DNA of 64,000 bases from Candidatus Berkelbacteria bacterium (GCA_037127955.1 JBAXXI010000002.1:8377-72376), one strand, 5' to 3'; positions 7,181 through 63,507 are shown, numbered from the stretch's first letter. A program made the numbers and translations. The notes: a model not told the origin generated them from the sequence alone.

Positions 7181-7195
7181 TTCGGATTTTTTAAT

Positions 7196-8335: not shown

Positions 8336-9502
8336 TTACGATTGCATATTTTGAGTTTTTTTGGCTTGCCAGTCGCGGATGGTAGCAATGACCTGGTTTC
8401 CACGGCTTTGCAAGCTCTCGCCTGCAATGTTAAAGGCTGCCGCGGCTTCGTGACCGCCGCCACCAAAAAGTCTGGCAATAGCCGAGACATCCACTCCGGC
8501 CTTGGCGGCTCTAAACGACCCGTGAAGACCATCATTTTTTTCACTTAGTAATAAAGCAAAATCAATGCCTGGCGCGGTTTTTAAGAGCTCGTCGAGTACA
8601 CCAGAGGTAGCCGAATCATCGGCTGCCGCACCAGCAAAATCCGCTCGATTAACCGCAGACCAGATAAACTTATAATTATTTTCATCACGAACATTTTCCA
8701 AGACTCGGCCCCAAAGTTTTAAGGTTGAAAGAGTTTTGGTTTTAAAAATCCATTTGATAATTTCTTGCTGACGAGCGCCAGCAGCCACTAATTGAGCGGC
8801 GACGGTAAATGATTTTGGGGTGGTATTAGAGTTTTGAAAACTTCCCGTATCAACGATAATACCAGTTAATAAAGCGGTAGCGACATCGGTATCAAGTAAC
8901 GGTTTTTCCCGACCTAAAGATTCAACCAAAGCTACCAAAATTTCAGCCGTACTGGTGGCAGTCAAATCAACCCAGTTAACTTTACCAAAATAATCATTAC
9001 CAGGATGATGATCGATATTAACCACCGGTGTTTCGTAAAATAGTTCTGTATTTTTATCATAAATAGCCCCTAATCGGTCTAAATCAGGTGCGTCGAGCAC
9101 AATAATCAAATCGTATTTAAAATTACCAAAAGAAAAAGTGACATCTTCAGATTTAAAACTACCGTTAACAGGAGTAATAACGACGTTAAGTTTATTTTCT
9201 TCAGGCACATTTTTATAGGCCAGTTTGTCAACTTTAACTTTGCTAGTGTTGACGGAAATAATAAAGTCTTTAGTTCCGGAAAAAGTTGAAGATAGACTAT
9301 CTTTTCCAGGTAAAAACTGTAAATTTTCCGGCAAAACCTCGCTCGTAACCGCGGTCACTTCTTTACCTAGTTTTTTCAGTACCAAAGAAAGAGCGATCAT
9401 TGATCCCAAAGCGTCACCGTCAGGGTTCACATGGCTCAAAATTAAAACTTTTTGCGCCGATCGAACCAATTCAATTGTTTGCTGTTTAGGGGTAAGTTCC
9501 AA
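8336..9502 (-). CDS. nrnA: DHH/DHHA1 phosphoesterase (NrnA-like nanoRNase / pAp phosphatase)
   Basis: DHH motif (VNPDGDALGS, NIDHHPGN) and a C-terminal DHHA1 GGGGHEAAAAF motif. Confidence 0.82.
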   Translation of the reverse strand: MELTPKQQTIELVRSAQKVLILSHVNPDGDALGSMIALSLVLKKLGKEVTAVTSEVLPENLQFLPGKDSLSSTFSGTKDFIISVNTSKVKVDKLAYKNVPEENKLNVVITPVNGSFKSEDVTFSFGNFKYDLIIVLDAPDLDRLGAIYDKNTELFYETPVVNIDHHPGNDYFGKVNWVDLTATSTAEILVALVESLGREKPLLDTDVATALLTGIIVDTGSFQNSNTTPKSFTVAAQLVAAGARQQEIIKWIFKTKTLSTLKLWGRVLENVRDENNYKFIWSAVNRADFAGAAADDSATSGVLDELLKTAPGIDFALLLSEKNDGLHGSFRAAKAGVDVSAIARLFGGGGHEAAAAFNIAGESLQSRGNQVIATIRDWQAKKTQNMQS

Positions 9503-10411: not shown

Positions 10412-10417
10412 TTCAGT

Positions 10418-10512
10418 ATAAAGTTAAAAGTCCAAAGTTAAAAGTTGCTTGGAATTACTATAAATATGATTTTTTCCATCTACTTTAAACCTTAAACTTT
10501 AAACTTTTAACT
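10418..10512. repeat. heptamer-tandem palindromic element (AAGTTTA/AAGTTAA type) in rpsT-lepB spacer
   Basis: Left arm AAGTTAAAAGTCCAAAGTTAAAAGTTG. AT-rich loop. Right arm ACTTTAAACCTTAAACTTTAAACTTTTAACT is its approximate reverse complement. Confidence 0.7.
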
Positions 10513-10527
10513 GTTTGCTGGAGGGGT

Positions 10528-22465: not shown

Positions 22466-22549
22466 AGCAATAATCCTTACTATTAAAGCTTAATACAACT
22501 TGATTATAACAAATTTTTCAGGTAAAATGTAGTGGATGAAAATTAAATA

Positions 22550-22582
22550 AGTTTAAAGTTGAAGGTAAAAAGTTTAAAGAAC
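22550..22582. repeat. half-element of AAGTTTA-type heptamer repeat immediately upstream of tsaD start
   Basis: AAGTTTAAAGTTGAAGGTAAAAAGTTTAAAGAAC. No clear matching right arm. Confidence 0.4.
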
Positions 22583-23770
22583 ATGGAAAAAAACAATATT
22601 AAAATACTGGCTATCGAGACTAGTTGTGACGAAACCGCCGCCGCTGTTGTTGAATCTAAAAATGGCGAAGTTAAAATATTGTCAAACATTGTTAATAGCC
22701 AGATTGATCTTCATAAAGTTTTTGGCGGTGTTTTTCCAGAAATTGCCTCTAAGACTCATGTTGAAAATATCATTCCAGTGATCGAAGAATCACTGGATAA
22801 ATCCGAAATCAGAATGTCAAAATCCGAAAAATTGAATGACATAGATGTAATTGCTGTAACTAGCGGACCAGGTTTGATTGGTTCACTTTTAGTGGGCACA
22901 AACACGGCTAAAACCCTGGCTTTTACCAAAAGCAAGCCGATTTTACCGATTAATCATTGGCTAGGTCACATATACTCCACTTTCAGTGGAGAATTTCCAG
23001 TTTCCAGTTTCCAGTTTCCAAATAAATTATCTAATGAAGAAAAATCCAAAACTGAAAACTGTGAACTGAAAACTGAGAACTTGCCCCAATTCCCTCTTCT
23101 CGCTTTAATTGTTTCAGGTGGCCACACCGGTTTAGTGATTATGAAGAGCCACACCGAGTACGAAACTATCGGCCAAACCCTCGATGATGCCGCCGGCGAA
23201 GCTTTTGACAAGGTGGCCAAACTGCTCGAACTTGGCTACCCAGGTGGACCAGCGATTTCAGCCGCCGCTGAAAAGTTCACAGTTTACAGTTCACAGTTTA
23301 CATATAAAATAATTCCAAATATTAAATTTCCGCGGCCCATGATACATTCAGGGGACTTTAATTTTAGTTTTTCCGGACTTAAAACATCGGTACTGAATAA
23401 GGTTAGAGAACTTGCTCAAACATACACTTTAGATGAAATTAAAAATCAAATTGCTTACGAATTTCAACAAGCCATTATCGATACTTTAATTACTAAAACT
23501 TTAGAAGCTGCCAATGAATACAAAATCAAATCAATTTGTCTGTGCGGTGGCGTTTCGGCTAATAAGGAACTCCGAGACCAGTTGGCTTCCGCACTTGAGA
23601 ACTGGAAATTGGAAACTGGAAACTCTGAATTATCTCTTTTTGTTCCCCCGATGCACTTGACTGGCGACAACGCTGCCATGATCGGTATCGCCGCCGCTTA
23701 CCAACTCGCCAACGGTGTCGAACCAACGACTTTTGATCAGGTTAACGCGAACTCAAATTTAAAGTTATAA
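22583..23770 (+). CDS. tsaD: tRNA N6-adenosine threonylcarbamoyltransferase TsaD (Kae1/YgjD), carrying three in-frame repeat-derived insertions
   Basis: ILAIETSCDETAAAV, SGPGLIGSLLVG, HWLGHIYS, VSGGHTGL, DDAAGEAFDK and GGVSANKELR motifs. The protein is about 60 aa longer than typical TsaD. The extra segments are encoded by heptamer-repeat elements. Confidence 0.9.
   Translation: MEKNNIKILAIETSCDETAAAVVESKNGEVKILSNIVNSQIDLHKVFGGVFPEIASKTHVENIIPVIEESLDKSEIRMSKSEKLNDIDVIAVTSGPGLIGSLLVGTNTAKTLAFTKSKPILPINHWLGHIYSTFSGEFPVSSFQFPNKLSNEEKSKTENCELKTENLPQFPLLALIVSGGHTGLVIMKSHTEYETIGQTLDDAAGEAFDKVAKLLELGYPGGPAISAAAEKFTVYSSQFTYKIIPNIKFPRPMIHSGDFNFSFSGLKTSVLNKVRELAQTYTLDEIKNQIAYEFQQAIIDTLITKTLEAANEYKIKSICLCGGVSANKELRDQLASALENWKLETGNSELSLFVPPMHLTGDNAAMIGIAAAYQLANGVEPTTFDQVNANSNLKL
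22994..23080. repeat. heptamer-tandem palindromic element (GTTTCCA type) inserted in frame inside tsaD
   Basis: TTTCCAGTTTCCAGTTTCCAGTTTCCA-AATAAATTATCTAATGAAGAAAAATCC-AAAACTGAAAACTGTGAACTGAAAACTGAGAAC. 87 bp. Encodes FPVSSFQFPNKLSNEEKSKTENCELKTEN, which typical TsaD lacks. Confidence 0.75.
23275..23303. repeat. partial GTTCACA-type heptamer repeat inside tsaD (in frame)
   Basis: GTTCACAGTTTACAGTTCACAGTTTACA encodes …FTVYSSQFTY…, an 11-aa insertion relative to the E. coli TsaD alignment I did by eye. Confidence 0.55.
23596..23626. repeat. partial GAGAACT/GGAAACT-type heptamer repeat inside tsaD (in frame)
   Basis: GAGAACTGGAAATTGGAAACTGGAAACTCTG encodes …ENWKLETGNSE…. Confidence 0.55.
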
Positions 23771-25215: not shown

Positions 25216-27336
25216 ATGAAGGAACTAGCAAAAAACTACAATCCGAAAGAAACTGAAGATAAAATTTACGCGCTTTGGGAAAAAGCCGAGGCTTTTAAAC
25301 CTGTTATTGATAATCCGTCAGCTGATGGACAAAAACCTTTTGTAGTAGTTATTCCGCCACCGAATGTCACTGGCTCCCTTCATATGGGCCATGCTCTCAA
25401 TAATACGATTCAAGATATATTAATCCGCCGTTCGCGCATGCGCGGCGTGCCAACTTTATGGATCCCTGGCACTGATCATGCTGGTATCGCCACTCAAAAT
25501 GTGGTGGAGAAAAAATTAGCCAAAGAAGGCACTTCTCGTCACGAATTAGGTCGTGAAGAATTTACCAAAGAAATTTGGACCTGGGTTGACCAATACGGCA
25601 ACACCATTATCAATCAGTTAAAGAGTATGGGTTGTTCTTGCGACTGGTCGCGTCAGCGTTTTACCATGGACGAGGGTTACGCTGAAGCCGTCAAAGCCAC
25701 CTTTATTCGTTACTATGAAAAAGGTTGGATTTACCGCGGTGAACGCGTGGTCAACTGGTGTACTCGCTGCCAAACATCGCTTTCAGATATCGAGGTTGAA
25801 TACAAAGAAGAAAAAGGTAAATTATACTGGATTAAATATGGGCCTTTCACTTTAGCCACCACCAGACCAGAAACTAAACTGGGTGACACGGCCGTTGCAG
25901 TTCACCCAGACGACAAGAGATATAAAGATATGGTTGGCAAAACATATACGATTAAAGGCGTAAATGGTGATTTTGATGTGATTGTTATTGCTGATAGATA
26001 TGTTGACCCAAATTTTGGTACTGGCGCCGTAAAAGTAACCCCAGCTCACGATTTCTCTGATTATGAAGCATCTCTCAGACACAATGTGCCGATGAAACAA
26101 ATTATCGATAAATACGGTAAAATGATGGACAACTGCGGTAAATACGCTGGCATGAAGACCGCTGAAGCTCGCGAAGCTATTGTCGAAGATATGCAAAAAA
26201 TGGGCTTAATTGACCATATCGATGAAGATTACATCCATAATGTCGGAACCTGTTATCGTTGTGGTAAAATCATCGAGCCACAACCAAGTAAACAATGGTT
26301 TGTCAAAATGGACGAACTAGCTAAACCGGCTATCGAAGCGGTTAAGAGTGGTGCTATCAAATTTACCCCAGAGCGCTGGAGTAAAGTGTATTTAGATTGG
26401 ATGGAAAACCTGCGCGACTGGTGTATTTCTCGTCAAATCTGGTGGGGCCACCAAATCCCAGCCTGGGAAAAAGGCGACGAAATTTATGTCGGTGATAATC
26501 CGCCAGAAGGTTTTACCAGGTCGGAAGATGTTTTAGATACTTGGTTTAGCTCCGCCCTTTGGCCATTTGCCACCCTTGGCTGGCCTAGCAAAACCGAAGA
26601 TTTAAAGCATTTCTACCCTACCAGTGTGCTTTCAACAGCCCGCGATATCCTCTATCTTTGGGTTGCCCGCATGATTTTCTCTGGGTACGAATTTACTGGC
26701 GAAAAACCATTTTCCGAAGTTTATATTCACCCAACCGTTTTCAATAAAGAAGGTAAACGCATGTCCAAATCACTTGGTACCGGCGTTGATCCGCTACTTT
26801 TAATTGACCAGTACGGCGCCGACGCCATGCGTTTCGGTTTAAGTTATATTAATACCGGTGTCCAAGATTTGAAGTTCGACGAGGAAGCGATCAAAGCTGG
26901 TGGTAAATTTGCCAATAAACTCTGGAATATCTCTCGTTTTCTTACCTGGAAATTAGAAAACGAAAATCCAAAATCAGAAATCAAAATTACAAATGAAACA
27001 CCAGAACCTAAATCCGAAGCCGACAAAATCATATTAACTAAATTAAACGAAGTTATTTCTTTAGTCGATAAAGACTTAGATGAGTTCAAATTTGGCCAAG
27101 CCGCTCACGAACTCTACGATTTTGTTTGGCACGATTTAGCCGATGTCTATATCGAAGAAAGTAAAAAAGAACTAAATTTACCAGTTTTGCAGCACATTAT
27201 TACCTCTTCGATTAAACTTCTACACCCAATTATGCCTTTTGTAACTGAAGAAATCTGGCAAAACTTGTACGAAAACAAAATAGTTGATGAAAAATTATTG
27301 ATTAAAGCCAAATGGCCAAATGCTAAAAGCGTTTAA
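25216..27336 (+). CDS. valS: valine--tRNA ligase (short form lacking C-terminal coiled-coil)
   Basis: PPPNVTGSLHMGHAL (HIGH) and KMSKSLGTGVDP (KMSKS) motifs; editing-domain sequence present; 706 aa. Confidence 0.93.
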   Translation: MKELAKNYNPKETEDKIYALWEKAEAFKPVIDNPSADGQKPFVVVIPPPNVTGSLHMGHALNNTIQDILIRRSRMRGVPTLWIPGTDHAGIATQNVVEKKLAKEGTSRHELGREEFTKEIWTWVDQYGNTIINQLKSMGCSCDWSRQRFTMDEGYAEAVKATFIRYYEKGWIYRGERVVNWCTRCQTSLSDIEVEYKEEKGKLYWIKYGPFTLATTRPETKLGDTAVAVHPDDKRYKDMVGKTYTIKGVNGDFDVIVIADRYVDPNFGTGAVKVTPAHDFSDYEASLRHNVPMKQIIDKYGKMMDNCGKYAGMKTAEAREAIVEDMQKMGLIDHIDEDYIHNVGTCYRCGKIIEPQPSKQWFVKMDELAKPAIEAVKSGAIKFTPERWSKVYLDWMENLRDWCISRQIWWGHQIPAWEKGDEIYVGDNPPEGFTRSEDVLDTWFSSALWPFATLGWPSKTEDLKHFYPTSVLSTARDILYLWVARMIFSGYEFTGEKPFSEVYIHPTVFNKEGKRMSKSLGTGVDPLLLIDQYGADAMRFGLSYINTGVQDLKFDEEAIKAGGKFANKLWNISRFLTWKLENENPKSEIKITNETPEPKSEADKIILTKLNEVISLVDKDLDEFKFGQAAHELYDFVWHDLADVYIEESKKELNLPVLQHIITSSIKLLHPIMPFVTEEIWQNLYENKIVDEKLLIKAKWPNAKSV

Positions 27337-27795
27337 ATCCGAAATCCGAATTCTAAATTTCAAATAAAAGGCGAAAATGTCAAATGATGAAACCAAATTT
27401 GACTTAGAAGAAAGAACCGCTAAATTCGGTGAGGATGTTATAAATTTCGTTAAAACGATACATTTAAACGAAATCAATCGCCCATTGATCAGTCAATTAA
27501 TCAGATCTGCAACAAGCGTAGGCGCCAATTACTGTGAAGCAGATTGCGCAGAAACAAAAAAGGATTTCGAGCATAAGCTTGGAATATGTCGTAAAGAATC
27601 AAAAGAAACCAAACACTGGTTGAGAATGATGGCGACAGCCCAACCAGATTTAAAAGAAAATCTACGATCAATATGGAAAGAGTCCAACGAATTAAATTTA
27701 ATCTTCTCTTCAATAATTCGTAAATCTAGAAATAAATTGTAGAATTGGAAATTTAATATTTTATTCGACATTCGAGTTTCGTCATTCTGATTTAT
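27335..27795. mobile_element. Long copy B of the TIR repeat, carrying the four-helix-bundle (Avd/IVS-protein-like) gene
   Basis: Left end AAATCCGAAATCCGAATTCTAAATTTCAAATAAAA overlaps the valS stop codon. Right end AATTGGAAATTTAATATTTTATTCGACATTCGAGTTTCGTCATTCTGATTT. The ORF 27377..27742 lies between them. Confidence 0.7.
27377..27742 (+). CDS. four-helix-bundle protein (23S rRNA intervening-sequence protein / Avd-like family)
   Basis: LISQLIRSATSVGANYCEA and KKDFEHKLGICRKESKETKHWLRMM match the family signature; 121 aa. Located inside a TIR-bounded repeat. Confidence 0.8.
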   Translation: MSNDETKFDLEERTAKFGEDVINFVKTIHLNEINRPLISQLIRSATSVGANYCEADCAETKKDFEHKLGICRKESKETKHWLRMMATAQPDLKENLRSIWKESNELNLIFSSIIRKSRNKL

Positions 27796-39964: not shown

Positions 39965-40258
39965 ATGAAAAAACAATATTATACATATTTTTTAACAAAT
40001 AAAAATAATACGGTTTTATATATTGGTGTTACGAATAATTTAATCAGAAGAGTCTACGAACACAAAAATAAATTAATCGATGGTTTTACTTGTCATTACA
40101 ACCTGGATAAGCTAATTTATTTTGAATTATTAGATGATCCAAAAACAGCAATTGCAAGAGAAAAACAACTAAAAAATTGGCACAAAGATTGGAAATGGAA
40201 TTTGATAAAAGCAAATAATCCTAACTTAAAAGATTTATATGACGAGATGCTGAAATAA
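39965..40258 (+). CDS. GIY-YIG nuclease family protein (stand-alone, 97 aa)
   Basis: YTYFLTNKNNTVLYIGVTNNLIRRVYEHK is a GIY-YIG core. Confidence 0.85.
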   Translation: MKKQYYTYFLTNKNNTVLYIGVTNNLIRRVYEHKNKLIDGFTCHYNLDKLIYFELLDDPKTAIAREKQLKNWHKDWKWNLIKANNPNLKDLYDEMLK

Positions 40259-40278: not shown

Positions 40279-41430
40279 TTATTTCATCGCTTTCTTAAGC
40301 TCTTCCACCTTATCTGTCTTTTCCCAAGTCAGGTTTAATTCTGTTCTACCAAAATGCCCATAAGCGGCTAGTTTTTGGTATACTGGTTTACGTAAATCTA
40401 GAGCCTCGATAATCATGCCTGGGCGTAAATCAAAAACTTTATTGACAGCTTCGGCAATCTTATCATCTTCAAACTTACCGGTACTAAAGGTATCAACTCG
40501 AACTGACATAGGCTCAGCTCGACCAATCGCATAAGCAATTTGCACTTCGGCGCGTTCAGCGAGCCCGGCAGCCACAATATTTTTGGCAACCCAACGGGCG
40601 GCATAACTACCAGATCGGTCAACCTTACTTGGATCTTTACCAGAGAAAGCACCGCCACCGTGGCGAGCATAACCGCCATAAGTATCGACGATAATTTTGC
40701 GACCAGTTAAACCAGTGTCGCCTTGAGGCCCACCAATCACGAAACGACCAGTAGTATTAACATAGAATTTAGTTTTACTGTCCAAATATTTCTCTGGAAC
40801 AACTTTTTTAATCACTAATTCGATAATTTCTTTTTGCAACTCTTTTTGTTTAATATTTTCATCGTGCTGAGCCGCGATTAAAACTGATTCAACTCTGACC
40901 GGTTTGTTACCATCGTACTCCACTGTGACCTGAGTCTTTCCATCTGGTCGAAGACCTTTGATAATCCCTTTTTTCCTAACTTCAGCTAAACGCGCAGCTA
41001 ATTTATGAGCTAAAACGATTGGTAAAGGCATAAGTTCCTTGGTTTCGGAACAGGCATAACCAAACATCAAACCTTGATCGCCGGCGCCAAGTTTCTCCAT
41101 ATTTTCCGCATCAACACCGCGAGCAATATCTACCGATTGACCAGTAATAGCCACATTGACGCCGCTAGTTTGCCAGTGGAAACCATATTCTGAGTCTGTA
41201 TAACCAATTTCTTTAATTTTGTTGCGAACAATCTTTTGAACATCAACATAAGTGTTAGTGGTAATTTCACCAGCAACCAAACAAAAACCATTAGTCAAAA
41301 AGGTTTCGCAAGCCACCCTAGCTTGAGGATCGTCAGTTAAAATTGCATCTAAAACCGCATCGGAAATTTGGTCAGCCATTTTGTCTGGGTGACCCTCGGT
41401 CACTGATTCGGAAGTAAAAAACTTTCGCAT
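40279..41430 (-). CDS. metK: S-adenosylmethionine synthetase
   Basis: [29 protein letters not shown] and DTYGG motifs. Confidence 0.97.
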
Positions 41431-41444
41431 TTTGTCCTTTCATT

Positions 41445-41580
41445 TACAAAAAAATCACCTTTTAAGGTGATGTATATTTTTACATTTTTCCCTAAAGGGT
41501 CGGAATTAGCACCCAACTTAAAGGGTTGCTGGTGGATCAACGGGCCGAATCCCTAACCACACTCTGAATATATTTTAGTT
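41445..41580 (-). promoter_or_regulatory. SAM-I (S-box) riboswitch in the metK leader, with intrinsic terminator as expression platform
   Basis: Minus-strand leader contains AGGGAUUCGGCCCGUUGAUCCACCAGCAACC … GGUGCUAAUUCCGACCC, matching the SAM-I core (GAGGGA-YGGCCCGAUGA…GGCAACC…GUGCYAAUUCC). This is followed by UCACCUUAAAAGGUGA and a U-run just before the metK ATG. Confidence 0.7.
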
Positions 41581-41702: not shown

Positions 41703-42119
41703 ATGAGCAAACATTACACTAAATCATGGCTTTTCCGTTGCGCTGACGATCGTTACGGAAAAAATTTGGAATTAAGAAATGGCCTTAAGGCTATTTTGAA
41801 CGATGCTGATGTCAAGGTTGCATTTGGACCCATGACTCCTTTTGGTAATTCTCTTGGTTTCACTAATCAAGATTTTTGCAATTATCTTCCAAGTGAAATC
41901 AAAACAGCTCGTCACCTTGGTATCGAAGAAATTATCTTCATCGATCACCTTGATTGCGGTGCTTTTTCTCTAACCTATGGTAAATTAACTGCCGAAGAAG
42001 AAGAGAAAAAACATCTCGAATCAATCGAGGTCGCCAGACGTTTCTTCAAGCAAAATGCACCGGACATGAAATTTGTCGCTTATCTACAAGATTTCGATAA
42101 TTTCAAAAAAATCTGCTAA
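41703..42119 (+). CDS. short beta-carbonic-anhydrase-like protein (139 aa)
   Basis: CADDR (CxDxR) and HLDCGA (HxxCG) zinc-ligand motifs of beta-CA. ATG at 41703 after AAAGGAG. Shorter than canonical beta-CA. Confidence 0.4.
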   Translation: MSKHYTKSWLFRCADDRYGKNLELRNGLKAILNDADVKVAFGPMTPFGNSLGFTNQDFCNYLPSEIKTARHLGIEEIIFIDHLDCGAFSLTYGKLTAEEEEKKHLESIEVARRFFKQNAPDMKFVAYLQDFDNFKKIC

Positions 42120-42296
42120 CTCCATCCCCGCACTCGATGCGGGGTTTTTATTTTAATAATAGTAATAATTAAAATATTTTAACCATGAACCAAAAAATAG
42201 GGGTGTTGATTTTGTTTGACACATATGTTAGCCTAAAAAAAGCACGACTAAAAATAGTAAAATAGATTTTTCTAATTTATAGATCTTATTTATATT

Positions 42297-43040
42297 ATGA
42301 ATATTTCCCTAGCCGCTGAAAAAATCATTGAATTCGGCCCAATCGCCATTACCAATACCATGTTGGTCACTTGGGTAGTGGTCGCTTTCTTAATTATTAT
42401 CAGTTATTTTGCCACCAGAAATATGCAAAAAGTTCCAGGTAAATTGCAAAATATTTTTGAATTTATTGTCGAAGCGCTTTTAGGCTTAATCGACTCGATC
42501 ACTCAGAACCGAGAGCAAAGCAAAAAATTCCTACCTCTTGTCGCTACCATTTTTTTATTCGTATTAACATCTAACTGGACTGGTTTGATTCCTGGGTTTG
42601 AAACCGTTGGTCGTTTCGAACATCATCATGGCGAAGAGGTTTTAATTCCATTTCTCAGATCGCCTGCTTCAGATTTAAACACCACTCTAGCCATTGCCAT
42701 TATCACCATGATCACTGTTCAAGTTTTTGGCGTGATTAGTGTTGGTTTCTTCCGTTACTTTAAAAAATTTGTTAACTTTAAAGGCCCAATCGAATGGTTT
42801 GTCGGTGTCGTTGAAAGTATTTCCGAATTTGCTAAAGTTATATCGTTTTCCTTCCGTTTATTTGGAAATGTTTTTGCCGGTAGCGTTTTGCTGGCCGTCA
42901 TTGCCAGCCTTCTAACCTTCATTGTGCCGATTCCTTTTTACGCCATGGAGGTTTTCGTTGGCGCCATTCAAGCCTTGGTTTTCGCCATGCTTGCCACTGT
43001 CTTTTTACAAATGGCCACCGTTGCTCATGACGAGCATTAA
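42297..43040 (+). CDS. atpB: F0F1 ATP synthase subunit a
   Basis: FRLFGNVFAG with the conserved Arg; 5-6 TM helices. Confidence 0.9.
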   Translation: MNISLAAEKIIEFGPIAITNTMLVTWVVVAFLIIISYFATRNMQKVPGKLQNIFEFIVEALLGLIDSITQNREQSKKFLPLVATIFLFVLTSNWTGLIPGFETVGRFEHHHGEEVLIPFLRSPASDLNTTLAIAIITMITVQVFGVISVGFFRYFKKFVNFKGPIEWFVGVVESISEFAKVISFSFRLFGNVFAGSVLLAVIASLLTFIVPIPFYAMEVFVGAIQALVFAMLATVFLQMATVAHDEH

Positions 43041-43056
43041 TTTATAGATTTATTAA

Positions 43057-43308
<252 letters not shown>

Positions 43309-43372
43309 AGTTAAACAAGTAAAGAGTTTTGCTCTTTACTGTTTACCCTTAAATTTTATATACGGAGGTCAC

Positions 43373-43855
43373 GTGGAAGCATTAGGTATAGAACTTAAAT
43401 TATTAATTGGTCAAATAGTCAACTTTGGCATTTTAGTCACAGCCTTGATTTTCTTTTTGTATAAACCAATTGTTAAAATGCTCGAAGATCGGCAAAAAAC
43501 TATTGCCGAATCCTTAGATAATGCTAAAAAGATTCAAATTAATTTGACCAAGAGTGAAACCAAAACCCGCGAAGCTCTAGACAAAGCTCAAGCTGAAGCT
43601 CGCAAAATGCTTGAAGAAACCAGCAAATCTGCAGTCGAACAAAAAAATAAGATTATTGCCGAAGCACAAGCTCAATCAGATAGAATCATCGAAAACTCAA
43701 AAGCTGAAGCTAAATCCATGAAAGACGATGTTGTTCGCGAAGCTAAAAAAGAAATTTCTTCAGTGGTTTTGGCCGCGTTAGACAAAATTATTTCCAAAGA
43801 TATTGATAGCGAAACAAAAGCAAAATTAACCAAAAAAGCTATAGACGAAATATAA
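43373..43855 (+). CDS. atpF: F0F1 ATP synthase subunit b
   Basis: N-terminal TM plus a long amphipathic helix. GTG start after GGAGG. Confidence 0.78.
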   Translation: MEALGIELKLLIGQIVNFGILVTALIFFLYKPIVKMLEDRQKTIAESLDNAKKIQINLTKSETKTREALDKAQAEARKMLEETSKSAVEQKNKIIAEAQAQSDRIIENSKAEAKSMKDDVVREAKKEISSVVLAALDKIISKDIDSETKAKLTKKAIDEI

Positions 43856-43858
43856 AAT

Positions 43859-43940
43859 AGTTTCCAGTTTCCAGTTCACAGTTTCCAATTAAATAAAAAA
43901 TTGAGAACTAAATGAGAACTGAAAATTGAGAACTGAGAAC
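43859..43940. repeat. heptamer-tandem palindromic element (GTTTCCA type) between atpF and atpH
   Basis: GTTTCCAGTTTCCAGTTCACAGTTTCCA-ATTAAATAAAAAATT-GAGAACTAAATGAGAACTGAAAATTGAGAACTGAGAAC. Confidence 0.75.
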
Positions 43941-43947
43941 CTAAATT

Positions 43948-44331
43948 ATGAAGATTTCTGCAAAAATTTACGCTCAAACCTTAATCCAGTCAGCCACAGA
44001 AGATAATTTGAAAAAATTAGCTAAAAGTTTTTGGTACAAATTACAGAAAAATAAACAGTACAAAGATATGAGTAAGGTTTTAGAAGCTATTGATGAAGAA
44101 TCGGCAAGACTTGATAATAAAATTTTAGCCAAAATTTATTCAAAAAATGAAATTTCCCAAACAGAGAAACAAGCCATAAACGAAAAACTCAAAAATAAAT
44201 TCAAAAAAGAAATAATTTTGCAAAATATTATTGGCAAAAATATCACCGGTATTATCGTTAAAGTTGAAGATAAAATTATTGATTTAAGTTTAGAAGGTAA
44301 ACTCGATAAACTCAAAAGAGTTTTAAATTAG
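43948..44331 (+). CDS. atpH: F0F1 ATP synthase subunit delta (short form)
   Basis: C-terminal …GIIVKVEDKIIDLSLEGKLDKLKRVL matches the delta/OSCP C-terminus. Operon position supports the call. Confidence 0.7.
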   Translation: MKISAKIYAQTLIQSATEDNLKKLAKSFWYKLQKNKQYKDMSKVLEAIDEESARLDNKILAKIYSKNEISQTEKQAINEKLKNKFKKEIILQNIIGKNITGIIVKVEDKIIDLSLEGKLDKLKRVLN

Positions 44332-44420
44332 TTTCCAGTAATCAGTTCCCAGTTCACAGTTAATTTTTAAAATTTAATAAATTGAGAATTAATTGAAAAT
44401 TGGAAATTGAAAACTGAAAA
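44331..44420. repeat. heptamer-tandem palindromic element (GTTTCCA type) between atpH and atpA
   Basis: GTTTCCAGTAATCAGTTCCCAGTTCACAGTT-AATTTTTAAAATTTAATAAATT-GAGAATTAATTGAAAATTGGAAATTGAAAACTGAAAA. Confidence 0.7.
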
Positions 44421-44433
44421 TTTAGGAGAAAAT

Positions 44434-45954
44434 ATGTCAAATAACATTATTGAACAATTAAAGGCTGAGATTTTAAACTTCGATGCCACAGTCAAAGAAG
44501 AGTCCACGGGTGAAGTCGCCGAAATCGGTGACGGTATCGCCAAAATCTATGGCTTAAAAGACGCCAAAAACGGTGAACTTTTAAACATTGAAGCCAAGAC
44601 CGGCGTGGTTACTGCCATGGTTTTAAACCTTGAAGAAACTTCTATCGGCGCCATTATTTTGGGCGATTATAAGAAAATTCAAGCTGGCGACAAAGTCACC
44701 ACCACTTCAAAAGTGGCAACAATTAATGTTTCTGAAGATATTGTTGGCCGCGTGGTTAACCCACTTGGTGTCGCTCTTGATGGCAAAGCCGATATCAAGC
44801 CTGGCAAAGCCATGTTAATTGAAAAAGTGGCCCCAGGCGTCATTACTCGTCAGGGTGTGTCCGTTCCACTTCAAACTGGTATGAAAGCCATTGACGCTTT
44901 GATTCCAATTGGTCGTGGCCAGCGCGAACTCATTATTGGTGACCGTGGTACCGGTAAAACTGCTATTGCCATCGACACCATTATTAACCAAAAAAGTTTA
45001 CCAAAAGATAAAAGACCGATTTGTATTTATGTCGCCATTGGTCAAAAGCAAAGTAAAGTCGCTCGTATCGCTGCCATTTTAGCCGAGCACGGCGCCATGG
45101 AATACACCACCATCGTTTTGGCTGGTGCCTCTGACCCAGCTCCTTTAAGCTATATTGCCCCTTATGCCGGTTGCGCTATTGGCGAATATTTTATGGAACA
45201 GGGTAAAGACGTTTTAATTGTTTTCGATGACTTAACCAAACATGCTTGGGCCTACCGACAGGTTTCCCTTTTGCTTCGTCGCCCACCAGGCCGTGAAGCT
45301 TACCCAGGCGATGTTTTCTATTTACACTCACGACTACTTGAACGATCCGCTCGCTTAAACAAAGAATATGGTGGCGGTTCCATGACTGCACTGCCAATCA
45401 TTGAAACCCAAGCCGGAGACGTTTCCGCTTACATTCCAACCAACGTTATTTCGATTACCGATGGTCAGATTTTCTTGGAAAGCGATTTATTCTACCAGGG
45501 CGTTCGCCCAGCTTTAAACATTGGTATTTCGGTTTCCCGTGTTGGCGGCGCCGCACAAATTAAAGCCATGAAAAAAGTTGCTGGTAAATTAAAACTTGAA
45601 ATGGCTCAGTACCGTGAAATGGCCGCTTTTGCCCAATTTGCTTCTGATTTAGACCCAGCGACCAAGAAAACCATTGAACGCGGCAAACGCATGACCGAGG
45701 TTTTAAAACAACCTCAATACCAACCAATGCCAGTTGAAGAACAAGTTTTGGTTTTATACGCGGTTTCCAACGGTTATTTAGACGCTTACGAAGTTTCCGA
45801 AATCAAAGAAATTGAAGCTGGTTTAGTTTTGAAAGCCCAAACCGCTGGTAAAGAAATATTAGCCGAAATCAGAGAAAAAGGTGTGATTGACGAGACTTTG
45901 GAGAAAAAAGTCAAAGAGTTCCTTGAGAAAAATACAAAAAAAGCCAGCGTATAA
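44434..45954 (+). CDS. atpA: F0F1 ATP synthase subunit alpha
   Basis: [18 protein letters not shown] Walker A. ATG at 44434 after AGGAGAA. Confidence 0.97.
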
Positions 45955-45978
45955 ACACTGGCTACGATTTCAGATAAA

Positions 45979-46224
45979 TTATCCCCTTGATTCAACGCAA
46001 ACCTTAAATGGTTTAGCGGCTTCGATAAATTCTGAATGAAGTTGTTCGGATATCGGTGTACCTTCTGGCACTATGACCATAATTTCCATAGTTGCCTGTA
46101 ACACTTTTAAGTGATTCAAAGGAATTTTACTCTGAATCCGAACATCCGAAACGCGTCTGACCGAATCTTTAAGATCAGATGTCATTTCAGTCCAAGGAAT
46201 AAAAGTATCATTCTGATTATGCAT
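45979..46224 (-). CDS. small hypothetical protein (81 aa) encoded antisense between atpA and atpG
   Basis: ORF with strong RBS AAGGGGGTG 6 nt upstream of ATG. No family recognised. Confidence 0.35.
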   Translation of the reverse strand: MHNQNDTFIPWTEMTSDLKDSVRRVSDVRIQSKIPLNHLKVLQATMEIMVIVPEGTPISEQLHSEFIEAAKPFKVCVESRG

Positions 46225-46283
46225 TAGACACCCCCTTTATTACATAGTTTATATCATAAAAATATTAATTAGTCAAGAGAAAT

Positions 46284-47204
46284 ATGCCAAGCACACAAGA
46301 ATTTAGACGAAGAATTAAATCAGTTGGTTCGATTAAGCAAATTACCAAAGCCATGGAAATGATTGCTTCTATTAAGATGCAAAAATCGACCAAAACCATT
46401 GCCCAAGCCCGTAGTTATATTCAAAACGCTTGGAATATTTTACATTTGTTGGCTAGTAAAACTCTTGACCAAGACCACCCTTTACTTAAACCAAGAGAAG
46501 TTAAAAAAACGGCTGTCATTTTAATCACATCTGACCGGGGTCTTTGCGGATCTTATAATTCCGAGGTGATTAAAAAATTTGTCAATTTTGAAAAAAATGA
46601 ATGCGCTTGTAACAGCGAAACCAAAACATGTGGCGAATATTTGGGCAATTGCGATGTCATTGCTATTGGTAAAGTCGGCGCAGGGTATGTCAATCGCTAC
46701 AAAATCGGCAAACTAATTGCTGAATTCAAAGGCTTCGAGAACAACATTTCCATCGAAGACGTAGTACCGATTTCCAAACTCACCAATGGTGAGTATCTTG
46801 ACGGTCACTATGACCGAGTGGTGGTGATTTACAGTCACTTTATTTCGTCACTTAAACAACTGCCGGTCGTTAAACAAATTTTACCAATCGTTGAAGAACA
46901 TATCGACAACCCTGAACTTTGGGAAAAAGTTGAGATCGATGAAAACATTGATTTCAAGTTTGAACCAAATCCAGAAGCCGTCATTGATGGTGTTTTAAAA
47001 CAAATTGTCAGAAGCCAAATTCTCGGTGCTATATTAGAAGCAAATGCTTCAGAGCATTCAGCTCGTATGGTTGCTATGAAGAACGCCACGGACAATGCCA
47101 CCGATTTGGTTGATGAATTAAAACTGGTTTATAACAGTATTCGCCAAGGCAATATTACCAGCGAGATTGCTGAAATTTCCGGCGCCGCCGAAGCGATGAA
47201 ATAA
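46284..47204 (+). CDS. atpG: F0F1 ATP synthase subunit gamma
   Basis: N-terminal RRRIKSVGSIKQITKAMEMIASIKMQK and C-terminal LVYNSIRQGNITSEI(A)EI motifs. Confidence 0.9.
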   Translation: MPSTQEFRRRIKSVGSIKQITKAMEMIASIKMQKSTKTIAQARSYIQNAWNILHLLASKTLDQDHPLLKPREVKKTAVILITSDRGLCGSYNSEVIKKFVNFEKNECACNSETKTCGEYLGNCDVIAIGKVGAGYVNRYKIGKLIAEFKGFENNISIEDVVPISKLTNGEYLDGHYDRVVVIYSHFISSLKQLPVVKQILPIVEEHIDNPELWEKVEIDENIDFKFEPNPEAVIDGVLKQIVRSQILGAILEANASEHSARMVAMKNATDNATDLVDELKLVYNSIRQGNITSEIAEISGAAEAMK

Positions 47205-47221
47205 ATTTGCGCGCAAATTTA

Positions 47222-47323
47222 AAAATCCGAAATCAGAATTCTAAATGACAAATAAAATTCACGATTAATAAATTTTAAAATTGGACATTTTATTCGAAAT
47301 TCGAATTTCGTCATTCGGATTTA
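47222..47323. mobile_element. MITE-like repeat copy C (ORF-less) between atpG and atpD
   Basis: AAAATCCGAAATCAGAATTCTAAATGACAAATAAAATT…AATTGGACATTTTATTCGAAATTCGAATTTCGTCATTCGGATTT. Confidence 0.7.
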
Positions 47324-47371
47324 AAACAAATAAATATCATAAAAACTAAAAAAGATATTAAAAAGAGATAA

Positions 47372-48756
<1,385 letters not shown>

Positions 48757-48757
<1 letters not shown>

Positions 48758-48945
48758 TGACAAATCCTAATATTATAGAATACTTTTTAACTTTCTTATT
48801 TTTGGCTTCTTTAGTAGGTACAATTTTTGGATTTATTAAAAAAATAAAATGGCTAAAAATAACTGGTATTAGTGTCTTAATTCTTTTCTTGTTTTATATC
48901 GGTTTTATTAGCTGGATAGCTTTTCAAATAAGTAGTTGGGATTAA
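48757..48945 (+). CDS. small 2-TM membrane protein (62 aa) inserted between atpD and atpC
   Basis: ATG overlaps the atpD stop (TAATG). Two hydrophobic helices. Confidence 0.35.
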
Positions 48946-48949
48946 TTAA

Positions 48950-49363
48950 ATGAAAACATTCAATCTAAAACTTATCTCTCCCACTGGTATCAAGTACGAA
49001 GCTGAAGCAAATTCAGTCTTTTTGCCGACTCCAGACGGCGAAATTGAAGTTTTACCAGATCACATGCCTTTGGTAGCCTTGCTTTCACCGGGTGAAATCT
49101 TGATTAAACTTGATGGTAAAACTGAACATTTAGCCACCGATGGAGGTTTGGTTGAAATTAATAACAATACTGTCAAAATCATTGCCGATGCCGCCGAGTC
49201 TGCCGAAAACCTTGATGAATTAAAAATCATGGAAGCTAAAAAATTAGCCGAAGAAAGACTGGCCAACGCCAAAGACAATGTCGAATCCGCCGATGCCGCC
49301 GCTCACCTTGAAAAACAACTTTCCAGACTCCGAATTGTCACCAAGCACAAACATAGAAAATAA
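48950..49363 (+). CDS. atpC: F0F1 ATP synthase subunit epsilon
   Basis: N-terminal beta-sandwich (…VTPDGEIEVLPDHMPLVALL…) plus a C-terminal helical hairpin; 137 aa. Confidence 0.85.
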   Translation: MKTFNLKLISPTGIKYEAEANSVFLPTPDGEIEVLPDHMPLVALLSPGEILIKLDGKTEHLATDGGLVEINNNTVKIIADAAESAENLDELKIMEAKKLAEERLANAKDNVESADAAAHLEKQLSRLRIVTKHKHRK

Positions 49364-49383
49364 ATAATCAATCAAAGACACAA

Positions 49384-49416
49384 AAAACCGTTCTCAAAAT
49401 GAGAACGGTTTTTTGT
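49384..49416 (+). terminator. rho-independent terminator ending the atp operon
   Basis: AAAAAACCGTTCTC-AAAAT-GAGAACGGTTTTTT. Confidence 0.8.
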
Positions 49417-49460
49417 TGCATAGTACGCAAATTTAAATATTGTGATATAATTGATACAGT

Positions 49461-49558
49461 CTAAAGTTTAAAGATAAAAGTTGAAAGTTCATGGAATTAA
49501 TTATTTATATTAATGTTTTTCATATTACTTTAAACCTTTAACTTTATACTTTATACTA
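49461..49558. repeat. heptamer-tandem palindromic element (AAGTTTA type) upstream of PrgI-like gene
   Basis: CTAAAGTTTAAAGATAAAAGTTGAAAGTT - loop - ACTTTAAACCTTTAACTTTATACTTTATAC. Confidence 0.7.
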
Positions 49559-49588
49559 ACTTGGAGGAGGGATACTATTCAGTTTCAA

Positions 49589-50071
49589 GTGCCGCAAAAT
49601 ATAGATCTAGAGGACAAAATCGTCGGGCCACTCACGCTGACCCAGTTTTTGTATGTCCTAGGTGGTGGTTTGCTTGACTATATCTTGTTCCAATCTTTAG
49701 GTAAAAACTACTTCGGAATTTTCCTTTTAATCGGCGGCCCAATCGCCATCATTGCTTTGTCTTTAGCTTTTTTTAAGGTTCAAGAACAACCTTTGTCACA
49801 CTTTATTACTGTTGGTATCAGTTATTTAACTAGACCAAAAGTTAGAATCTGGAAAAGACTAGATAGCTACCCAACTGTTTTAACCGAACCACCAAAGAAA
49901 AAAGAAGAAGAACCGATTATTATTAAAAAACACTTAGAAAAAAGCGAATTAGACCAGTTAGCCTATAATTTAGACACTTTTCAGTCAGATAAACCAGAAG
50001 AGAAAAAGAAAATTGGCAGTATTACCAGCGCTTTTGAACAATTATTAAAAGAACAACCAAAACAAAAATAG
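49589..50071 (+). CDS. PrgI/VirB3-like T4SS membrane protein
   Basis: DKIVGPLTLTQFLYVLGGG followed by two TM helices. Sits upstream of the VirB4 genes as in Gram-positive T4SS. GTG start. Confidence 0.5.
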   Translation: MPQNIDLEDKIVGPLTLTQFLYVLGGGLLDYILFQSLGKNYFGIFLLIGGPIAIIALSLAFFKVQEQPLSHFITVGISYLTRPKVRIWKRLDSYPTVLTEPPKKKEEEPIIIKKHLEKSELDQLAYNLDTFQSDKPEEKKKIGSITSAFEQLLKEQPKQK

Positions 50072-50146
50072 ACTTATAGTAATTAAGACTTTTAGACTTA
50101 TAGAGGCGAACTATAAGCCTATAGATCTAAAAGTCTATAAGTCTGA
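50071..50146. repeat. heptamer-tandem palindromic element (TAAGACT/TATAGAC type) upstream of 50160 gene
   Basis: GACTTATAGTAATTAAGACTTTTAGACTTATAGAGG-CGAAC-TATAAGCCTATAGATCTAAAAGTCTATAAGTCTG. Confidence 0.65.
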
Positions 50147-50159
50147 TGCAGGAGGGGAA

Positions 50160-50849
50160 TTGGCAGACAAAAACTCACAACCAATTATCAGCACCCAAGA
50201 ATTTTTGAGTTTTGCTGAAATTCACGACGGAGTCGTCATTACTAAAACCGGAGAACTTCGGGTTCTATTAATGGCGTCATCGATCAATTTTTCCCTTAAA
50301 AGCGAACAGGAGCAAACAGCTATTGTTTATGCTTACCAAAATTTCTTAAACTCTCTGGCTTTTCCAATTCAAATTATGCTCCAATCTAGAAAACTAGATT
50401 TAACCAAATACATAGCTAAACTCAAAGAAATTAGTCGAGTTCAAACCAATGAACTTTTGCGCGGTCAAACCAATGACTACATCAATTACATCACCAGATT
50501 GATCGAAGTGGCCAATATTATGGATAAAAAGTTTTATGTGGTTGTCTCTTATATGCCACCGGTTTTAGACATAAAAAAAACTGGTCTATTTCCGTCGAAT
50601 AACGACACTTCGAAAATCAAAATGACCCCAGAAAGCTTTGAAAAATACCGTCAAGAATTATCGCAGCGCGTACAGGTAATTCAAAACGGATTAGGTTCAA
50701 TCGGAGTTCGTACTGCTCCACTTAATACTCAACAAGTTGTTGAACTTCTTTACGGTATATATAACCCTGAAGAAGCAGCTAAAGAAAAATTAATTAATTT
50801 TAATCATCTTAATTCAGATGTGATTGAGAGTGAAATAGAACAGCAATAA
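50160..50849 (+). CDS. VirB4 N-terminal-domain-like protein (229 aa), separate ORF
   Basis: FAEIHDGVVITKTGELRVLLMASSINFSLKSEQEQ… resembles the start of Gram-positive VirB4/PrgJ/TcpF proteins. TTG start after GGAGGGG. Assigned from memory. Confidence 0.45.
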   Translation: MADKNSQPIISTQEFLSFAEIHDGVVITKTGELRVLLMASSINFSLKSEQEQTAIVYAYQNFLNSLAFPIQIMLQSRKLDLTKYIAKLKEISRVQTNELLRGQTNDYINYITRLIEVANIMDKKFYVVVSYMPPVLDIKKTGLFPSNNDTSKIKMTPESFEKYRQELSQRVQVIQNGLGSIGVRTAPLNTQQVVELLYGIYNPEEAAKEKLINFNHLNSDVIESEIEQQ

Positions 50850-62283: not shown

Positions 62284-63366
62284 TTATTTATCAATTTTTC
62301 CAATCTCCACAATCCTGGCGGTTTTTTGTAATGATTTTTCAATATGGTCGAGATCGGTGGTGGTAATAATTGTTTGTTGACCAGACATAATTTTGGCTAA
62401 ATGCATGCGCCGATCATGGTCGAGTTCAGAAAAAATATCATCTAAAAGTAAAATGGGGCGTTGACCAAGTTTTTCAGACATAAACTCAAGCTCGGCCATT
62501 TTAAGCGCCACCAAAGCCGTGCGATACTCGCCGCGGGAAGCAAAAGTAGTGATATCTCGCCCATCCAACAAAAATACCAAATCGTCTCGGTGCGGGCCAT
62601 GACTAGTAGTGTTTTGACTAATATCACGATCGCGATCAATAGTTAAAATATCCATAAATCGATCTTCTTCCACTGAGGCTTTATAGGAAAGTTTTAAAGT
62701 TTCCTTTTGGCCACTAATTTCCGAATAAGCCTTGTCCAAAGTTTGATTGAAAAATTTAATAACACTTGTCCGTTGAGCAATAATAGCTCTACCTGCCTCC
62801 ACTAATTTTTGATCCCAAAACTCTAATTCATCTGGTTTACCCCGACGCAAACTAATCATTTGTAGTAATTTGTTTCGCTCTTTTAGAACTTTATTAAAAC
62901 TGAGTAAATTTAGGGCATATTTTTTGTCGATTTGAGAAAGCATGACGTCTAAAAACTTGCGTCTTAAGCCTGGCGCGCCATCTAAAATTTCCAGTGATTC
63001 TGGACTAAAAAGCACGGCTGGCAAAATTCCGAGTAGATCAATCAGGCGCTTTTTAGTACTGTTTACTTTGAGAATCTTTGGTTGCGGTCTATCTTTAGTT
63101 GGAATTTTTTGCAAAACCAAATCGATTTTTACAGATTTATCCCCACTTACCTCAGCTTCAATTTTAGCAAAATCATTTTCCCAGTTAATCGACTCAGCAT
63201 CTCGGTTTGTCCGCCAACTTCGGCCGGTCGATATAAGCCAAACCGCCTCTAAAACATTAGTCTTTCCCCTGCCATTTGGCCCAATAAATATGGTCACATC
63301 ACTAAAATCAAACTCGTTGCTCAACCAGTTTCGAAAATTAGTAAGTTTTATAGATTTAATAATCAT
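62284..63366 (-). CDS. recF: DNA replication and repair protein RecF
   Basis: IIKSIKLTNFRNW…FIGPNGRGKTNVLEAV Walker A and a C-terminal signature region; 360 aa. Confidence 0.92.
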   Translation of the reverse strand: MIIKSIKLTNFRNWLSNEFDFSDVTIFIGPNGRGKTNVLEAVWLISTGRSWRTNRDAESINWENDFAKIEAEVSGDKSVKIDLVLQKIPTKDRPQPKILKVNSTKKRLIDLLGILPAVLFSPESLEILDGAPGLRRKFLDVMLSQIDKKYALNLLSFNKVLKERNKLLQMISLRRGKPDELEFWDQKLVEAGRAIIAQRTSVIKFFNQTLDKAYSEISGQKETLKLSYKASVEEDRFMDILTIDRDRDISQNTTSHGPHRDDLVFLLDGRDITTFASRGEYRTALVALKMAELEFMSEKLGQRPILLLDDIFSELDHDRRMHLAKIMSGQQTIITTTDLDHIEKSLQKTARIVEIGKIDK

Positions 63367-63407
63367 AATACAGATCTAAAATCATGATGCAGATTTAGTA
63401 ATCATAA

Positions 63408-63505
63408 TGTCGAATAACAAAATCCGAATGTCGAACAAAATACTAAATTAATAAATCTCCAATTAGACGTTTTATTCGTCATTTGAAATTCGGATTTCGG
63501 ATTTA
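63408..63505. mobile_element. MITE-like repeat copy D (ORF-less) between dnaN and recF
   Basis: …AAAATCCGAATGTCGAACAAAATACTAAATTAATAAATCTCCAATTAGACGTTTTATTCGTCATTTGAAATTCGGATTTCGGATTT. Right TIR is perfect. Confidence 0.7.
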
Positions 63506-63507
63506 AC

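Follow-up and report, generated by a model that had tools for sequence, protein, structure and literature searches.

Short palindromic elements with tandem-repeat arms in a Candidatus Berkelbacteria genome: candidate insertion elements of operon junctions and genes

Introduction

[quoted passage not shown] Here, we compare them with a set of hairpin-forming elements found in a 64-kb stretch of DNA (the window, in what follows; GCA_037127955.1, JBAXXI010000002.1:8377-72376) from the metagenome-assembled genome (MAG) of an uncultivated Candidatus Berkelbacteria, of the candidate phyla radiation (CPR, or Patescibacteria). With moderate confidence, we consider that these are several families of one superfamily of short non-coding palindromic insertion elements, of the MITE, ERIC or RPE kind, whose arms are tandem repeats. 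In fact, they are absent from a relative at 70% identity, are swapped for others in relatives at 85-90% and occur in frame in the tsaD gene, which is the behaviour of insertion elements and not that of dedicated operon regulators. None of the closest analogues combines paired tandem-repeat arms, many families of one architecture and a CPR host, and the set is apparently undescribed.

ERIC sequences are imperfect, non-coding palindromes of approximately 100-127 bp that occupy transcribed intergenic regions, at locations that vary between species; in some lineages they are flanked by TA, and they can alter mRNA decay (PMC3184786). The Berkelbacteria elements match them in architecture and in hyper-conservation, and their transcription would follow from their position inside operons. 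While ERIC is a single family whose sequence is unique and non-repetitive, the present elements belong to many unrelated families, with arms of tandem 7-, 8- or 10-nt units, in a CPR host and with in-frame copies in essential genes. Homology to the ERIC consensus is implausible given these periodic A+T-rich arms. RPEs comprise several palindromic families of approximately 100-150 bp that are found in frame, and translated, in unrelated housekeeping genes, as well as between genes, in a small reduced genome (PMC10969869). Insertion in frame in unrelated genes is also seen here, as a 31-codon insertion in tsaD, an array in valS and four copies in the tsaD gene of one relative. The host lineage is a different one, which makes the likeness an analogy only, and most of the present copies are intergenic, at junctions between a stop codon and a Shine-Dalgarno motif. 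To our knowledge, the arms of RPEs are not tandem short repeats.

The Correia elements (or NEMIS) of Neisseria and other MITEs, such as RUP, BOX and Nezha, are small, non-autonomous, dispersed and polymorphic elements with inverted-repeat ends that are co-transcribed with their neighbours. Additionally, Correia hairpins are substrates of RNase III (PMC10969869). The elements described here share with MITEs a non-coding length below approximately 500 bp, terminal inverted repeats, dispersed families and polymorphism for presence or absence. By contrast, the defined terminal inverted repeats of a classical MITE, its target-site duplication and its cognate insertion sequence (IS) could not be established here, and in the present elements the whole arm is a tandem array.

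Repetitive extragenic palindromic (REP) sequences and the bacterial interspersed mosaic elements (BIMEs) are abundant palindromes of operon spacers that are bound by host proteins, can stabilise the upstream mRNA and are conserved within lineages. REPs are G+C-rich, measure 20-40 nt and have GTAG or CGTC as their head (PMC3733652), whereas the elements considered here are periodic, A+T-rich, 80-116 nt long and mostly end in AATT. The short tandemly repeated repetitive (STRR) heptamers of cyanobacteria, and the TAACTGA repeats of Beggiatoaceae, Cyanobacteria and Bacteroidetes (MacGregor 2015, PMC4679880), resemble them in being intergenic tandem heptamers located directly upstream of start codons. 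TAACTGA repeats often overlap the upstream stop codon, leave no Shine-Dalgarno motif, occur occasionally in frame and are patchily distributed in the phylogeny; they are direct arrays, with one inverted case in 170 repeat sets and no predicted secondary structure (PMC4679880), while in every full element here an array is matched, on the other side of a conserved loop, by one that is complementary to it. The present elements have the tandem heptamer direct repeats of STRRs and are not stand-alone arrays that vary by slippage. The 3′ arms of family A, described below (GAACTGA/AAACTGA), match TAACTGA at six of its seven bases, and they always form one arm of a hairpin and are not TAACTGA repeats. 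Eukaryotic Foldback transposons, finally, have long inverted arms of tandem short subrepeats around a middle segment, but are kilobase-sized. Our literature search returned no description of a bacterial foldback-type element, nor any paper linking CPR bacteria to MITE or REP elements.

Architecture and families of the elements

Tandem arrays were sought with a lag scan that required at least 16 matches in 21 positions at a given lag, for periods of 4 to 12 and with block-shuffled controls. Period 7 yielded 18 arrays in the window, every other period 0-2 and the block shuffles 0-1, and Tandem Repeats Finder returned the same period-7 arrays. In each element, 3-5 short units in tandem are followed by an A+T-rich loop and then by another array, an imperfect reverse complement of the one before the loop. 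Full elements measure 80-116 nt; in the window, their arms span 26-41 nt with 66-84% Watson-Crick complementarity, and approximately one mismatch per unit is found at regular spacing. No open reading frame (ORF) of at least 60 aa lies within any intergenic copy. When the elements were folded as RNA and compared to 200 dinucleotide shuffles per fold, nine of ten folds were long hairpins (z -2.3 to -6.6; 0-2 of the 200 shuffles folded as well), the exception being the sense strand of the element at 47222 (z -1.6, with 13 of 200 shuffles as good). Taken together, the enrichment in period 7 and the fold z-scores exclude chance.

A preliminary description of the window, made from its sequence, had proposed a family of hairpins with heptamer arms, an A+T-rich loop and an imperfect complementary arm, in three sequence flavours. 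This architecture is confirmed at all six reported sites, a half copy included, and the description proves to be an understatement. There are, however, at least four families and not three, as the one with AAATCCG units (7077, 27332, 47222 and 63418) had been overlooked, and the arms are heptameric in most elements but not in the TAAGACT one at 50068, whose units have 8 nt.

Families A, B and D are each represented by three or four copies in the 64 kb. Family A comprises an element in frame within tsaD (22988-23081; TTTCCAG x4 ... AAAACTG x5) and the two that flank atpH, one between atpF and atpH (43857-43943; -20.8 kcal/mol, z -4.6) and the other between atpH and atpA (44329-44424; -27.0 kcal/mol, z -6.6), which has the TAG stop codon of atpH as its first three bases and ends at TAGGAG. 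This agrees with the placement of two elements in the atp operon in the preliminary description. Family B (AAAGTTA / TAAACTT units) is found between rpsT and lepB (10412-10522; -25.5 kcal/mol, z -3.7), where it terminates at a GGAGGGG Shine-Dalgarno motif, and in the leader of a prgI-like gene (49458-49560; -21.6 kcal/mol, z -3.9), downstream of the atpC terminator (49380-49416). A half copy of this family (22547-22589) retains the 5′ arm and the beginning of the loop; it can be matched to the 5′ halves of the other two, and the whole family can be aligned over its full length, including the loop; the ATG of tsaD (22583) is supplied by a CATGGAA in the loop remnant of this half copy.

The four copies of family D (AAATCCG / CGGATTT units), which also align with elements in two other genomes, are located in the rpsO-pnp spacer (7077-7192, both genes on the - strand; sense-strand fold of -35.1 kcal/mol, z -5.3), between valS and a PF05635 gene (a half copy at 27332-27368, whose first unit contains the TAA stop codon of valS), between atpG and atpD (47222-47327) and between dnaN and recF (63418-63507, both genes on the - strand; -20.4 kcal/mol, z -2.3). 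Family C is represented by the element of 8-nt units (AGACTTAT / ATAAGTCT) between prgI and a traC-like gene (50068-50146; -26.5 kcal/mol, z -5.2), which contains the TAG stop codon of prgI; similar octamer elements are present in a related locus, L027. Outside the window, family F (AATTCTTAATT...) was found in six genomes, with invariant inner arms and mismatches.

As same-family copies share their loops as well as their arms, they are dispersed repeats and not the products of local slippage. It could be argued that heptanucleotide microsatellites expanded in place by replication slippage, with the hairpin as an incidental outcome: the number of units does vary between copies, and, according to Mrazek (2007, as cited in PMC4679880), in many bacteria heptanucleotide repeats outnumber the other kinds of long simple-sequence repeat. 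We regard this as very improbable, because loops, arm order and even mismatches are common to copies at unlinked loci and in different genomes, the arms are always paired with a complementary array and orthologous copies are almost invariant, where microsatellites are hypervariable. An orientation tied to replication was also considered, as the window lies in one replichore (with negative GC skew throughout, and dnaN and recF at its right end) and all its same-family copies are co-oriented; it was rejected since family D is reversed in the atp operon of the related loci L020 and L023 and arm orientation is, overall, unbiased.

The family F core gave scattered single matches only, in A+T-rich viral contigs. 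The sequence CAGTTTCCAGTTTCCAG was found in 41 viral contigs, including MITE-like elements of approximately 135 nt with heptamer ends. In one contig of the viral collection (L090), these elements lie at 380-570, 2310-2500 and 8460-8650, and each of their inverted ends is made of two CAGTTTC heptamers and then GTACA; CAGTTTC arrays occur in 40 other viral contigs, among them G+C-rich ones that hold 18-22 heptamer arrays apiece. Such units are, thus, not unique to the Berkelbacteria clade. Viruses as carriers of the elements were considered and rejected, because the viral matches are not linked to Berkelbacteria.

Occupied, empty and exchanged sites

The window was compared with related loci at various degrees of identity (L005, 91%; L020, 85%; L004 and L006, 70%, in AtpH; L023, 54%). 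In the 70% relative, no heptamer array is present in the 20 kb sampled. The atpF/atpH site is empty in L004 and L006, where the two genes overlap as TAATG, and in L006 the atpH/atpA and prgI/traC sites are also empty, with spacers of 9 and 13 nt, respectively, while its atpG/atpD spacer is without the family D element. In closer relatives, the same spacer may be filled by a different family. For instance, the element of the atpH/atpA spacer belongs to family A in the window and L005, to family D in L020 and L023 and to family F in L014 and L025, and the spacer is empty in L006, L026 and L035. Similarly, the family D element between atpG and atpD in the window corresponds to an unrelated element in L005, despite 90% identity between the atpG genes. 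Orthologous sites are therefore polymorphic for the presence of an element, with differences of family in the same spacer seen in L005, L020 and L029.

A wider survey included 433 kb around atpH from 46 metagenomic loci, in addition to 14 reference-genome loci. The 433 kb contain 136 arrays of period 7 and 74 of period 8, with at most 21 of any other period, and arrays of the same kind are present in the 14 reference-genome loci. Altogether, 107 distinct hairpins were collected from the related loci and the window, with units of 7, 8 or 10 nt in the related genomes. Each side of atpH carries a palindromic element of some kind in nearly all relatives, and the families involved are at least eight in number. 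The elements fill their spacers tightly: the median distance from the stop codon to the hairpin is 2 nt and that from the hairpin to the Shine-Dalgarno motif is 9 nt, and the stop codon lies inside a hairpin arm in 21 of 67 cases. In the window, the 3′ ends are 0-10 nt from Shine-Dalgarno motifs, which agrees with the proximity to ribosome-binding sites (RBSs) noted earlier. Junctions between a stop codon and a Shine-Dalgarno motif are where an insertion is tolerable in such compact genomes.

In L020 (403-570), the atpF/atpH element is followed by a truncated, diverged duplicate of the 5′ end of atpH, then by an element of 8-nt units (AAATTGCT / ACAATGGA) and, finally, by the real atpH. This arrangement hints that insertion or recombination at the elements can duplicate or import gene ends.

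Copies inside coding sequences

Although the preliminary description placed the elements in gene spacers, their range is wider, as there are also copies inside the tsaD and valS coding sequences. In tsaD, residues 136-166 of the protein (nt 22988-23080) are unmatched in the solved structure of TsaD (8iey_A) and in several relatives, and this 31-residue insertion coincides exactly with the family A element at 22988-23081, which folds better on the antisense than on the mRNA strand (-33.2 vs -19.3 kcal/mol). Smaller insertions relative to the solved structure coincide with two other heptamer arrays on the + strand, one of AGTTCAC/AGTTTAC units (23274-23302), within an insertion of 8+3 residues, and one of AACTGGA/AATTGGA units (23595-23631), which encodes ENWKLETGN, a 7-residue insertion common to some relatives. 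In valS, a family D-like heptamer array (26955-26998, + strand) is found at an insertion of 6+3 residues relative to the Thermus valyl-tRNA synthetase (ValRS).

Among relatives, TsaD varies in length between 330 and 513 aa, and its insertions fall at six hot spots or more. The tsaD gene of L120 (3001-4542), for instance, contains four in-frame hairpins of 10-nt units (AGTTACRAAM / GTAACCAATM), which encode a recurring peptide, VTNSYEKLQKVT.

Conservation of resident copies

Orthologous copies of an element are almost identical. The atpH/atpA element at 44329 has 2 differences in 96 positions between the window and L005, where four-fold sites differ at 81 of 225 in atpA and 11 of 25 in atpH; likewise, the atpF/atpH element at 43857 has 1 difference in 87 between the window and L020, with 9 of 24 four-fold sites changed in atpH. 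In these comparisons, divergence is thus 1-2% in the elements and 36-44% at four-fold sites (P ~1e-16), that is, resident copies change 20-30 times more slowly than synonymous sites, and the suggestion that they are not passive repeats holds. L014 and L025, whose AtpH proteins are 58% identical, share a family F element that is 94% identical and forms an island of 93-97% identity between an atpH of 55-60% and an atpA of approximately 78% nucleotide identity. Regional recombination was rejected as the cause, since the islands of identity are limited to the element and at most approximately 60 nt. Wilson and Sharp reportedly found, in 2006, that ERIC sequences are conserved far beyond the neutral expectation.

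The most similar between-genome pairs are those at orthologous spacers, while paralogues are 60-88% alike. A resident copy is, therefore, either preserved with hardly a change or exchanged for another altogether, and this all-or-none conservation appears to extend to the loops and the regular mismatches.

Recognition as RNA or as DNA

Roles in RNA processing, mRNA stability or translational regulation had been suggested for these hairpins, but all the RNA-specific tests were negative. In the 66 hairpins flanked by co-directional genes, G.T mismatches on the sense strand (130) are not in excess over A.C mismatches (123). No covariation is seen in family F, which is the best-sampled family; hairpins with the T-rich arm first and those with the A-rich arm first are similarly frequent relative to transcription (30 vs 23), and pairing in translation-initiation regions does not exceed that of their surroundings.

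These results bear on the possibility that the elements are intercistronic RNA hairpins selected by the host, for which the repeat families would be raw material, and that they provide segmental mRNA stability, direct or block processing by RNase III, RNase J or PNPase or tune downstream translation. The strong conservation of resident copies, the palindromes on both sides of atpH in nearly every relative, the location in spacers flanked by same-strand genes and the ends beside Shine-Dalgarno motifs would all be expected from it, and there is precedent in ERIC, Correia and REP sequences (PMC10969869, PMC3184786). Additionally, the window encodes RNase J (1914-3689, - strand) and PNPase (4876-7062, - strand), and the rpsO-pnp spacer holds the family D copy with a strong sense-strand fold. 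In E. coli, the rpsO-pnp spacer has a hairpin that is cut by RNase III and autoregulates pnp. We nevertheless consider this explanation unlikely: in addition to the lack of G-U excess, covariation, orientation bias and masking of initiation regions, loops and mismatches that structure alone would not need are conserved, sites are empty in the 70% relative with its overlapping genes, and some copies lie in frame in coding sequence. The enrichment in atp operons, of 0.19 vs 0.10 hairpins per kb outside them (P = 0.066), is weak and not significant.

That the elements are intrinsic terminators or attenuators inside operons is hardly credible. They are, indeed, intergenic stem-loops, but in a terminator scan of 42000-50300 no element had a G+C-rich stem followed by a T run, while the true, bidirectional terminator of atpC (49380-49416) was detected; furthermore, elements are found between subunit genes of one enzyme, and one lies inside tsaD.

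Other features point to the DNA. AATT occurs in 51% of heptamer units, against an expected 18%, and ATAT and TATA are under-represented; one third of the elements have AATT both at their start and at their end. The strand-symmetric mismatches, the free orientation, the AATT core every 7 nt and the all-or-none conservation suggest recognition as DNA by a sequence-specific protein, and an RNA structure tuned by the host would fit less well. The elements might also act in the mRNA, a reading that we do not favour, and an effect on its stability in particular is conceivable because the hairpin forms in either orientation.

Recognition of DNA might serve the host itself, with arrays of AATT cores acting as binding platforms for a nucleoid-associated or topology protein, or as sites of cruciform formation. 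BIME and REP elements bind IHF and gyrase. Mismatch types and orientation that are symmetric between strands, the frequency of the self-complementary AATT core, the conservation of every position and the A+T-rich inverted repeats with short loops all suit such a function. We think it quite improbable, however, as the families are wholly different outside the core, which leaves the conservation of the other positions unexplained by a single binding protein; moreover, there are no such arrays in the 20-kb locus of a related genome, copies in coding sequence are hard to square with a positional role in the chromosome and no candidate protein was identified.

Origin and mobility

As for the reading that we favour, that of short insertion elements, the comparisons show that they arrived in their sites as insertions, as a rule placed precisely between one gene's stop codon and the Shine-Dalgarno motif of the next in tight operons, often donating the stop codon itself, and that they are also present in frame, in surface loops of essential proteins such as TsaD and ValRS. 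A sequence-specific protein would read the element as DNA; the most plausible candidate is the machinery by which copies are mobilised or copy-corrected. As they lie inside operons, the elements are probably co-transcribed, and the transcripts would form long hairpins, mismatched at regular intervals, with the RBS left free. By analogy with ERIC, Correia and REP sequences, these hairpins could block RNase J and PNPase or serve as substrates of RNase III, which we would regard as a side effect or as a co-option at a later stage.

Several observations weigh against this reading. A scan with Pfam of 40 window proteins revealed no transposase or other mobilising gene, including a RAYT (Y1 transposase), and neither these proteins nor the loci examined include a cognate IS or transposase with matching ends, or an autonomous element with matching arms. 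No target-site duplication is consistent across elements, the comparison of filled and empty sites fitting TA only at the two that flank atpH; in most families, both ends are simply AATT. There is no near-identical pair of paralogues in the window and, therefore, no sign of a very recent burst. That orthologues resemble each other more than paralogues do argues that every resident copy is under selection or is faithfully maintained, which would not be expected of a purely selfish element, and a function for the host would give hyper-conservation too. Finally, any transcription, processing or protein binding of the elements is putative.

Some specific mechanisms of mobility were considered and discarded. 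TA duplication of the Tc1/IS630 type suits the two elements that flank atpH and is not general: the outer ends are TA...TA in 7 of 107 hairpins, whereas 37 start with AA and end with TT, typically as AATT...AATT. Matching inverted arrays 300-4000 nt apart, which might have marked an autonomous partner, merely bracket ordinary genes between neighbouring elements. Integron attC sites were also rejected, as the flanking genes are housekeeping genes of operons and not cassettes.

A more specific proposal, which we put forward tentatively and with more doubt than conviction, is that the elements are an undescribed foldback-type mobile DNA of Berkelbacteria and, perhaps, of other CPR bacteria, with arms of 7-, 8- and 10-nt units built on an AATT core. 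An enzyme that reads this periodic architecture would mobilise or copy-correct them; they would target junctions between stop codons and Shine-Dalgarno motifs as well as loops of essential proteins, spread between lineages and remain near-invariant while resident.

Neighbouring features of the window

Some observations concern the surroundings of the elements. A tandem repeat with a unit of 19 nt (AGATTTATAATCATAATGC, 2.9 copies; 63352-63409) adjoins the family D element of the dnaN/recF spacer, in the vicinity of the presumed replication origin. For the prgI-like gene, the probable start codon is an ATT (in 49560-49600), shortly downstream of GGAGGAGGG; there, the window reads ATT-CAG-TTT-CAA-GTG where L006 reads GTG-CAG-TTT-CAA-GTA. 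The PF05635 gene (27377-27742, + strand), for a "23S rRNA intervening sequence protein", adjoins valS and is preceded by a half element; in L120, a PF05635 gene likewise lies beside a class I tRNA synthetase gene. The ValRS of the window (25216-27336, + strand) has 706 aa, compared to 862 in Thermus, and its alignment stops at Thermus residue 696; judging from this, it seems to be devoid of the C-terminal coiled-coil domain.

In the atpE/atpF spacer there is a non-periodic hairpin (43305-43353), and L006 has a hairpin of another sequence at the same place; structure is thus kept while sequence is free, which is the opposite of the behaviour of the periodic elements. Between atpA and atpG, an antisense ORF of 81 aa (45979-46224, - strand) is accompanied by a terminator-like hairpin (45942-45963), and an ORF of similar size is called in relatives; as this region is only 54% identical to L005 although atpA and atpG are approximately 90% identical, it is a variable cassette inside the atp operon. 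Between atpD and atpC lies an ORF of 62 aa whose function is not known (48757-48945, + strand), with ORFs of 62-69 aa at that place in relatives.

Small stand-alone ORFs for GIY-YIG nucleases (97-108 aa) are found in the window (39965-40258, + strand) and in L006 (11934-12260), where one has been inserted in the atpA/atpG spacer. At most, they are conceivable candidates for the structure-specific cutting of hairpin DNA. No Rfam family matches any element, and the sole match in the window at the gathering threshold is a SAM-I riboswitch (41479-41574, - strand; RF00162, 54.9 bits) directly upstream of metK (40279-41430, - strand), which is an ordinary arrangement.

Biological significance

The elements could be used as markers for strain typing and, conversely, should be taken as a caveat for metagenome assembly and for gene calling, because stop and start codons may be donated by repeats. 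CPR genomes are compact as well as small, and their mobile or repetitive DNA seems to be poorly known. A superfamily of palindromes located in operon junctions and enzyme loops could account for the range of lengths of TsaD and for the filled spacers of these bacteria. If the elements were indeed of the foldback type, they would be a main source of odd protein insertions and of filled spacers in these reduced genomes. In any case, their slow change, together with their wholesale swapping between near relatives, points to a strong sequence-specific interaction, which may reflect a new mechanism of mobilisation or copy correction or a widespread function in cis.

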